The notes under the pieces are model-generated. The model had not been told where the DNA came from. It saw only the letters and a list, made by a program, of their open reading frames with translations, and made no database searches. The translations under genes were made by a program, and so were the position numbers. A stretch of 64,000 nt of DNA, from NCBI RefSeq assembly GCF_024223415.1, contig NZ_CP100500.1. One strand, given 5' to 3'. The stretch is from Escherichia coli. GTDB taxonomy: Bacteria > Pseudomonadota > Gammaproteobacteria > Enterobacterales > Enterobacteriaceae. Shown here in pieces: positions 27,482 through 30,600 of this stretch (position 1 is its first letter; each line of letters starts with the position of its first letter).

Positions 27482-29460
<1,979 letters not shown>

Positions 29461-29462
<2 letters not shown>

Positions 29463-30600
29463 GTCAGAGCCCCTCGATCTCAATCAGTTAGCGCAAAAAA
29501 TTAAACAGTGGGGGCTGGAACTGGGCTTTCAGCAGGTAGGTATTACCGATACCGATCTCAGCGAGTCCGAGCCCAAACTGCAAGCATGGCTGGACAAACA
29601 ATACCACGGCGAAATGGACTGGATGGCACGTCACGGTATGCTGCGCGCTCGCCCCCATGAGTTATTGCCCGGTACGCTGCGCGTGATCAGCATGCGGATG
29701 AATTACCTTCCTGCTAACGCCGCATTTGCCAGCACGCTGAAAAACCCCAAACTCGGCTATGTTAGCCGTTATGCGCTGGGCCGTGACTATCACAAACTTC
29801 TGCGCAACCGACTCAAAAAGCTGGGCGAGATGATTCAGCAACATTGTGTTTCGCTGAATTTTAGACCGTTTGTCGATTCTGCGCCTATTCTCGAGCGCCC
29901 GTTAGCTGAAAAAGCTGGGCTCGGCTGGACAGGTAAGCACTCACTTATCCTCAATCGCGAGGCCGGTTCGTTCTTCTTTTTAGGCGAATTGCTGGTCGAT
30001 ATTCCGCTGCCCGTGGATCAACCAGTCGAGGAAGGATGCGGCAAATGCGTGGCCTGTATGACGATTTGCCCGACCGGTGCCATCGTCGAGCCATATACCG
30101 TCGATGCTCGCCGCTGTATCTCTTATCTCACCATCGAACTGGAAGGGGCGATCCCGGAAGAGTTGCGACCGTTAATGGGAAACCGTATTTACGGTTGCGA
30201 TGACTGCCAGCTTATCTGCCCGTGGAATCGCTATTCACAACTCACTACAGAAGACGATTTCAGCCCGCGTAAGCCGCTACACGCACCGGAACTCATTGAG
30301 TTATTCGCCTGGAGCGAAGAGAAGTTTTTAAAAGTCACGGAAGGTTCGGCGATTCGCCGTATAGGTCACCTGCGCTGGCTGCGTAATATCGCCGTGGCAT
30401 TAGGCAATGCGCCCTGGGATGAAACGATTCTGGCGGCGCTGGAGAGTCGCAAAGGTGAGCACCCACTTCTTGATGAGCACATAGCGTGGGCGATGGCGCA
30501 GCAAATCGAGAGGCGAAATGCGTGCATAGTCGAAGTGCAATTGCCGAAAAAACAGCGTCTGGTTCGGGTGATTGAAAAAGGGTTACCGCGTGACGCCTGA
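29461..30600 (+). CDS. queG: epoxyqueuosine reductase QueG
   Basis: ORF 29353..30600 trimmed to [23 protein letters not shown], 379 aa; two 4Fe-4S Cys clusters (CGKCVACMTICP ... CDDCQLICP). Confidence 0.9.

Follow-up and report, generated by a model that had tools for sequence, protein, structure and literature searches.

Adjacent genes that overlap at their 5' ends are rare in Escherichia coli, in which only 2 of 663 overlapping adjacent pairs are divergent (PMC4161906), and the members of this class are often suspected of start misannotation. At the level of transcripts, divergent excludons are neighboring pairs on opposite strands whose promoters give rise to mRNAs that overlap at their 5' ends and are sensitive to RNase III, and ExcludonFinder lists queG-nnr among the 16 divergent excludons of E. 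coli (PMC12288877). The same work counts yjeV-queG-nnr as one of three noncontiguous operons of this organism, in which genes transcribed together are parted by one of opposite orientation. For its part, the operon map of Conway et al. ranks the yjeF (nnr)-...-hfq-... operon, with its 14 genes and 8 promoters, above all others of E. coli in complexity. According to Table S1 of Huang et al. 2020 (PMC7373196), which tabulates that map, the plus-strand operon at 4391701-4408049 overlaps a divergent operon reaching to 4392114, the overlap being 413 nt. In the same paper this overlap is represented by the double-stranded RNA (dsRNA) cluster S-361 (29442-29796 in the numbering used here), a coding cluster of the 5' divergent class, in the top 20 by abundance, captured with p19 in stationary phase, and by MS-212 of the Lybecker dsRNA set.

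We analysed the junction between both genes in a window of 64,000 nt of E. coli DNA, to whose first letter all positions refer (Table 1). The plus strand reads ggtccgtCATGtcagag at the junction, and direct reading bears out what had been pointed out in the initial annotation, namely, that a single CATG may hold the start codons of both nnr and queG. The two genes are arranged head to head without intergenic DNA, and with the annotated starts positions 29461-29462 are common to both coding sequences, making them a divergent overlapping pair with a 2-nt overlap at the 5' ends. The domains of the two products scored far above the Pfam cutoffs (YjeF_N, residues 40-199, and Carb_kinase, residues 258-496, in Nnr; QueG_DUF1730 and Fer4_16 in QueG), and the Nnr product is named bifunctional NAD(P)H-hydrate repair enzyme in RefSeq. 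The 2-nt head-to-head overlap is also found in the RefSeq/PGAP annotation (locus coordinates 1416..2963 on the minus strand for nnr and 2962..4101 on the plus strand for queG), both in strain 88-3493, the nearest to the window with 99.9% identity, and in a K-12 derivative, and the region was matched in 5425 of 5426 complete E. coli genomes. The overlap of both start codons is, then, the public annotation as well as the reading favored by the comparative evidence, and the nnr/queG layout of E. coli is real, conserved, and already on public record.

Table 1. Positions of the features at the nnr/queG junction in the 64,000-nt window
Feature	Position	Strand	Basis or remark
nnr (yjeF) coding sequence, 515 codons, 1548 nt, MTDHTMKK...	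27915..29462	-	Open reading frame, Pfam, RefSeq product name
queG (yjeS) coding sequence, 379 codons, epoxyqueuosine reductase	29461..30600	+	Open reading frame, Pfam
Shared CATG, both start codons	29460..29463		Direct reading; RefSeq overlap; conservation
queG ATG	29461-29463	+	Direct reading
nnr upstream (long) ATG	Complement of 29460-29462	-	Direct reading
nnr second in-frame ATG (codon 6), possible alternative start giving 510 aa	29445..29447	-	15 nt downstream of the first
Shine-Dalgarno GAGGGG of the upstream nnr ATG	29470..29475	-	7 nt before the ATG; plus strand is queG Pro4-Leu5 (CCC CTC)
Near-invariant 44-bp block with both translation initiation regions (queG codons 1-11, nnr codons 1-4)	29450..29493		Column and synonymous entropy
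PqueG	29401..29429	+	-35 TCGGCG 29401-06, 17-bp spacer, extended -10 TGTGg 29419-23, -10 TATACT 29424-29; nnr codons 12-21
queG 5' leader, ~24 nt, U-rich, weak Shine-Dalgarno (-2.2 kcal/mol)	29437..29460	+	Published overlap end 4392114 (K-12), converted to 29437
nnr operon promoter core GGTCTAAAATTCAGCG	29852..29867	-	-10 TAAAAT 29863..29858; queG codons 132-136
nnr 5' leader, ~388 nt, wholly antisense to the first third of queG	29463..29850	-	Conway coordinates as tabulated in PMC7373196
Region transcribed on both strands, 413-414 bp	29437..29850		PMC7373196, Table 2 and Table S1
Proteins with discordant nnr start calls			P0002, P0012, P0016-18, P0298, P0300, P0303

To place the junction in an evolutionary frame, we compared 81 Enterobacteriaceae sequences, consisting of the window and the locus from 80 other species, anchored on the start of queG. 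CATG was retained in 80 of them, with the same geometry in nearly all; outside this set, the junction of Klebsiella pneumoniae reads CATGATGGACCAT and keeps it as well. The homologue search yielded only relatives with at least 79% identity, and more distant loci were obtained through a search of representatives and contig look-ups. A CATG common to both starts was also present in Tolumonas (Nnr 47% identical), once a miscalled TTG start of queG is corrected, and in a second distant locus, L084 (Nnr 50% identical). In more distant gammaproteobacteria the synteny of queG, divergent from nnr-tsaE-amiB-mutL, was kept, but with spacers of 6, 49, 73, and 194 nt. Although the divergent class is often suspected of misannotation, the overlap described here is conserved in Enterobacteriaceae and recurs in Tolumonas, and judging from these alignments the arrangement is evidently no chance juxtaposition.

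The conservation extends well beyond the tetranucleotide. Column entropy was close to 0 from position -30 to +13 around CATG in the 81 sequences, defining a 44-bp block (CGCTAACTGATTGAGATCGAGGGGCTsTGA-CATG-ACGGACCATA) that is almost invariant, synonymous sites included. The mean synonymous codon entropy of queG codons 2 to 11 was 0.26 bits, compared with 1.13 bits over the whole gene, and the 10-codon windows beginning at codons 1 to 4 were the four lowest of the 369 in queG. Similarly, the values for nnr codons 2 to 4 did not exceed 0.1 bits, whereas the mean of the gene was 1.29. Block and gene-wide values were obtained from one set of sequences on one tree, so that relatedness by itself does not account for the frozen sites. 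Nor does a conserved hairpin explain them, because none of the RNA folds of the two initiation regions was more stable than shuffled sequence (z between -0.06 and +1.5). A search of Rfam with 29300-30900 gave no family, the sole hit being below threshold and at the edge of a tRNA. Each base of the block serves the coding of queG, the initiation region of queG, and that of nnr, and four codons serve the coding of nnr as well; such stacked constraints would be the simplest explanation for its being frozen.

The initial annotation had also noted a second in-frame nnr ATG able to relieve the overlap. This codon exists and could do so, but it is not conserved and its Shine-Dalgarno is poor, although the Kosakonia cowanii clade has no other nnr start. 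Upstream of the long reading, GAGGGG lies within the 5 to 10 nt before a start codon in which a run complementary to the 16S rRNA is expected, and its duplex with the 16S 3' end (-7.2 kcal/mol) ranked in the top 2% of 3000 random window positions. The motif was practically invariant in the 81 sequences, with a synonymous entropy of 0 at queG Pro4 and 0.32 bits at Leu5. In contrast, the pairing before the second ATG amounted to only -3.2 kcal/mol, an ordinary, background-level value. The upstream ATG was present and in frame in 76 of the 81 sequences, and the frame between both ATGs was open in 77. At the second site there was an ATG in 36 sequences, a GTG in 16, a TTG in 9, and no start codon in 20; as a 5'-proximal alternative start it was not conserved among the relatives. 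In 20 sequences (Buttiauxella, Cedecea, C. sedlakii, Atlantibacter, and others) the upstream ATG is the only ATG, GTG, or TTG before the conserved S-I-P-H motif. The nnr start reads ATGATG in Klebsiella and S. diarizonae, and in Salmonella enterica subsp. arizonae the upstream ATG has become ATT while the next codon has changed from ACG to ATG, so that an AUG beside the Shine-Dalgarno is kept. Another codon, the TTG at 29483 (nnr open reading frame of 522 codons), was rejected as a start, having no Shine-Dalgarno (+1.9 kcal/mol) and being missing in several species.

The opposite situation was found in four Kosakonia-type genomes (Kosakonia cowanii, K. arachidis, K. oryziphila, and a soil MAG; L054, L055, L061, and L063), in which the second ATG is the sole nnr start. 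There, the upstream ATG has lost its frame through the insertion of 1 nt after CATGACGGACCATA, and an in-frame TGA overlaps CATGA. The Shine-Dalgarno plus CATG block is nevertheless fully conserved, and the ATG led by it now heads an out-of-frame open reading frame of 20 to 21 codons (MTDHRDEKK...) that overlaps the real nnr start. Given that the block is intact although this ATG is out of frame, conservation of the block alone is no proof of the Nnr start. These genomes show, moreover, that the 44-bp block is conserved for reasons beyond encoding the N terminus of Nnr, and that the second ATG is able to act as a start in nearly the same sequence context as that of E. coli.

Taken together, these comparisons suggest that the AUG embedded in CATG is probably the principal nnr start in E. 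coli. If both AUGs were substantially used instead, 515-aa and 510-aa proteoforms would coexist, in the manner of the 5'-proximal in-frame alternative starts that, according to the main text of the retapamulin preprint (bioRxiv 10.1101/520783), are common in E. coli. Such dual use would fit the fact that each site is the sole start somewhere, with 20 sequences relying on the upstream site and 4 on the downstream site, and that E. coli has almost the same bases ahead of the second ATG as the Kosakonia clade in which Nnr requires this codon. We nonetheless consider dual use possible rather than likely, given that the pairing at the second site is at the level of the background, that the site lies 15 nt inside a frame that would be occupied by ribosomes from the upstream start, that a quarter of the species have no start codon there, and that nnr is not mentioned in the main text of that preprint. 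The nnr gene resembles the genes described therein in having a second in-frame ATG five codons into the frame, but its second site differs in being poorly conserved and lacking a Shine-Dalgarno.

It would be unlikely, in our judgment, that E. coli Nnr is made from the second ATG only, with coding sequences that do not overlap and an upstream ATG that is a by-product of the queG start and of the constraints on the queG leader. This reading draws on the fact that two of the three bases of the upstream ATG, the A and the T, are already fixed by the ATG of queG, on the persistence of the block where that ATG is out of frame, and on the dispensability of the five N-terminal Nnr residues in Kosakonia; these residues also fall outside YjeF_N, which begins at residue 40. 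Public gene calls disagree on the matter, with 515 or 510 aa in Escherichia and Citrobacter and 508, 507, or 503 aa in Klebsiella, and Prodigal-type callers give the 510-aa form. However, the strong, well-spaced Shine-Dalgarno precedes the upstream ATG and none precedes the second, 20 species lack any start codon in or around the second site, the ATT/ATG compensation of S. arizonae preserves an AUG by the Shine-Dalgarno, and the frame between both ATGs is almost always open. In the published data searched, neither initiation profiling nor N-terminal peptides for nnr were found: nnr/yjeF is absent from the searchable supplements of TRAINSPOTTER, TetRP, Giess 2017, Stringer 2021, and the Salmonella riboproteogenomics paper, and the PDB holds no structure of E. 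coli Nnr and hence no construct N terminus.

The start of queG at ATG 29461 is well supported. On a leader beginning at the mapped 5' end, 29437, this codon is the sole in-frame ATG, GTG, or TTG, the E. coli protein is homologous to the solved QueG of Bacillus subtilis (5d08) from residue 6 onward, and its first 17 residues can be aligned with Tolumonas QueG from the latter's own CATG-embedded ATG. That the overlap should be an annotation artifact, with queG starting elsewhere, is scarcely credible: the very weak Shine-Dalgarno of queG and a frame that is open upstream to a GTG at 29353 speak in its favor, but the mapped 5' end and the homology stand against it, the next in-frame start downstream would remove conserved sequence, and the leader, which is antisense to nnr codons 1 to 9, is unstructured, folding no more stably than shuffled sequence. 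A GTG at 29416 was rejected because it lies upstream of the mapped 5' end, and so was a leaderless queG transcript from TATGGT (29450-55), since the published 5' end and the PqueG deletion point to the TATACT promoter. The leader also contains an out-of-frame ATG 10 nt before the queG start, which opens a frame of 17 codons (29451-29504, plus strand); this ATG is complementary to the codon of nnr His4, has been conserved along with the block, and has no Shine-Dalgarno on the mapped mRNA.

The prediction that each promoter must lie inside the coding region of the partner gene held, as indicated by the published 5' ends, by the deletion of PqueG reported in PMC10950094, and by the conservation computed here. 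The published ends, converted as window = 4421551 - x from the read sequences of PMC7373196, fall at 29850 on the minus strand and at 29437 on the plus strand, each 7 nt past its -10 hexamer. For queG the hexamer ends at 29429, and the spacing is within the usual 6 to 8 nt. TGTGgTATACT (29419-29429) has the features of an extended -10 sigma-70 promoter, with TG one base upstream of the hexamer, A at position 2, and T at position 6. As in other promoters of the extended -10 (TGn) class, the -35 box of PqueG (TCGGCG) is poor; PqueG differs in that it is contained entirely within a coding sequence, in which it fixes rare codons (ATA) of its host gene. The extended -10 is the complement of nnr codons 12 to 15 (AGT ATA CCA CAC), whose synonymous sites are frozen: AGTATACCACA is nearly invariant, the rare Ile codon ATA and the Ser codon AGT included, and the variants TATAGT and TACACT, present in three species, retain TGTGG. 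Mapping of the primers given in PMC10950094 on the window placed the delta-PqueG allele of that work at exactly 29401-29431, from the -35 through the -10.

The region of the nnr operon promoter covers approximately 29850-29886, that is, about queG codons 130 to 142, with the -10 in codons 133 to 135. GGTCTAAAATTCAGCG (29867..29852) was identical in all 81 sequences, and queG codons 131 to 135 form the second-lowest island of synonymous diversity in queG, with the rare Arg codon AGA frozen. The operon start at 4391701, as tabulated in PMC7373196, corresponds to 29850, 7 nt past the TAAAAT hexamer. In a run-off microarray comparison of sigma-70 and sigma-S, yjeF-yjeE-amiB-mutL appears in what its table neighbors suggest is the sigma-70-preferred list. 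Readings of GTCTAAAAT as a sigma-E or sigma-S promoter were rejected, there being no matching -35 and the operon being, by that table, seemingly preferred by sigma-70. A scan for consensus -35/-10 promoters and terminators found no promoter in 29100-29850 or in 29800-30900; because both real promoters have poor -35 boxes, such a scan is uninformative here. Farther upstream, queG codons 150-151 (29908-29913) and 158-160 (29932-29940) showed near-zero synonymous diversity; at a distance of 60 to 90 bp before the start of the nnr transcript, these codons could mark upstream sites for the promoter or for a regulator, or could reflect chance.

With promoters that give rise to 5'-overlapping transcripts, queG-nnr has the layout of a divergent excludon, and shares with that class an overlap of ~413 nt and dsRNA captured by p19 (PMC7373196). 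It differs from the catalogued description in that the overlap covers both ribosome-binding sites and both start codons, a circumstance undiscussed there, and mutually exclusive expression of the two genes, by analogy with excludons, might occur. The likeness to a noncontiguous operon resides in the presence of yjeV, the glyVXY tRNA genes, and nnr on one strand, with queG antisense between them. The difference is that the main nnr promoter mapped by Conway et al. lies inside queG, not upstream of it.

Several further observations were made at the flanks of the pair. Beyond the 3' end of queG, yjeV, annotated with 17 codons (MRFYFYSQAVDESGVTR; 30583-30636, minus strand), overlaps queG convergently by 18 nt, and yjeV-queG is listed in the literature as a convergent excludon. 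The interval 30600-30870, from queG to the tRNA genes, is the datA locus, a DnaA-inactivating site according to PMC10950094; it contains consensus DnaA boxes at 30614-30622 and 30776-30784 and terminator-like hairpins on the minus strand at 30778-30764 and 30680-30658. Three tandem tRNA-Gly(GCC) genes, glyV, glyX, and glyY, follow at 30870-31168 on the minus strand, which is that of nnr, and published work describes transcription continuing from them through datA towards the strand antisense to queG. At the other end, the last 29 nt of nnr (27915-27943) are also part of tsaE, which has the same orientation, the tsaE start ATGATG lying within the last nnr codons, and the reduced synonymous diversity of nnr codons ~503 to 507 is consistent with an embedded ribosome-binding site of tsaE. 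The lowest 5-codon synonymous window of nnr was found at codons 365 to 369 (GAT AAG CGT CAC AAT; ~28356-28370), with 0.16 bits against the mean of 1.29, and may be an internal promoter or signal of the superoperon.

The explanation that we propose for the junction, and hold to be probably correct as a whole, is as follows. Translation of queG would begin at ATG 29461 on an mRNA with a leader of ~24 nt, transcribed from the extended -10 promoter in nnr codons 12 to 15. As the first gene of the nnr-tsaE-amiB-mutL-miaA-hfq... superoperon, nnr would be carried by an mRNA starting ~388 nt upstream, at the TAAAAT promoter in queG codons 133 to 135, and would be translated mainly from the CATG AUG by means of a GAGGGG Shine-Dalgarno that doubles as queG codons 4 and 5. 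The second AUG, 15 nt downstream, is able to serve as a start, though probably as a minor or backup site in E. coli. Both mRNAs are complementary over ~413 nt and form dsRNA cleaved by RNase III. As the regions of both ribosome-binding sites are on opposite strands of the same 44 bp, the block would have become frozen in evolution. In this scheme, the sequence geometry, the conservation, and the Shine-Dalgarno strengths come from the present analysis, and the transcript ends, the dsRNA, and the location of the PqueG deletion from published work, whereas the choice of the nnr AUG and any effect of the antisense overlap on regulation are inferred.

A further step, to which we would give little credence at present, is that the 44-bp block works as a single bidirectional module for the start of translation. 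Since the two ribosome-binding sites are complementary to each other, pairing of the mRNAs, already observed as dsRNA cut by RNase III, would mask both together. The translation of queG and that of the first gene of the nnr superoperon would then be reciprocally exclusive, with the second nnr AUG serving as an escape route that yields the shorter proteoform.

The annotation, the transcript overlap, the dsRNA, the excludon label, and the PqueG deletion strain were already known. What is added here is the age and depth of the conservation, the location of the nnr Shine-Dalgarno and of both -10 hexamers in codons of the partner gene that are frozen (and rare), and a comparison between species that favors the CATG start of nnr while leaving some probability to the second ATG. 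Only about two divergent coding overlaps exist in E. coli, of which this junction is one, and it shows to what extent neighbor genes can accommodate promoters and ribosome-binding sites. In practice, any knockout or recoding of the first ~20 nnr codons removes PqueG, and changes in queG codons 1 to 12 or 130 to 142 hit the ribosome-binding site or the promoter of nnr, with possible polar effects on tsaE, amiB, mutL, miaA, and hfq.
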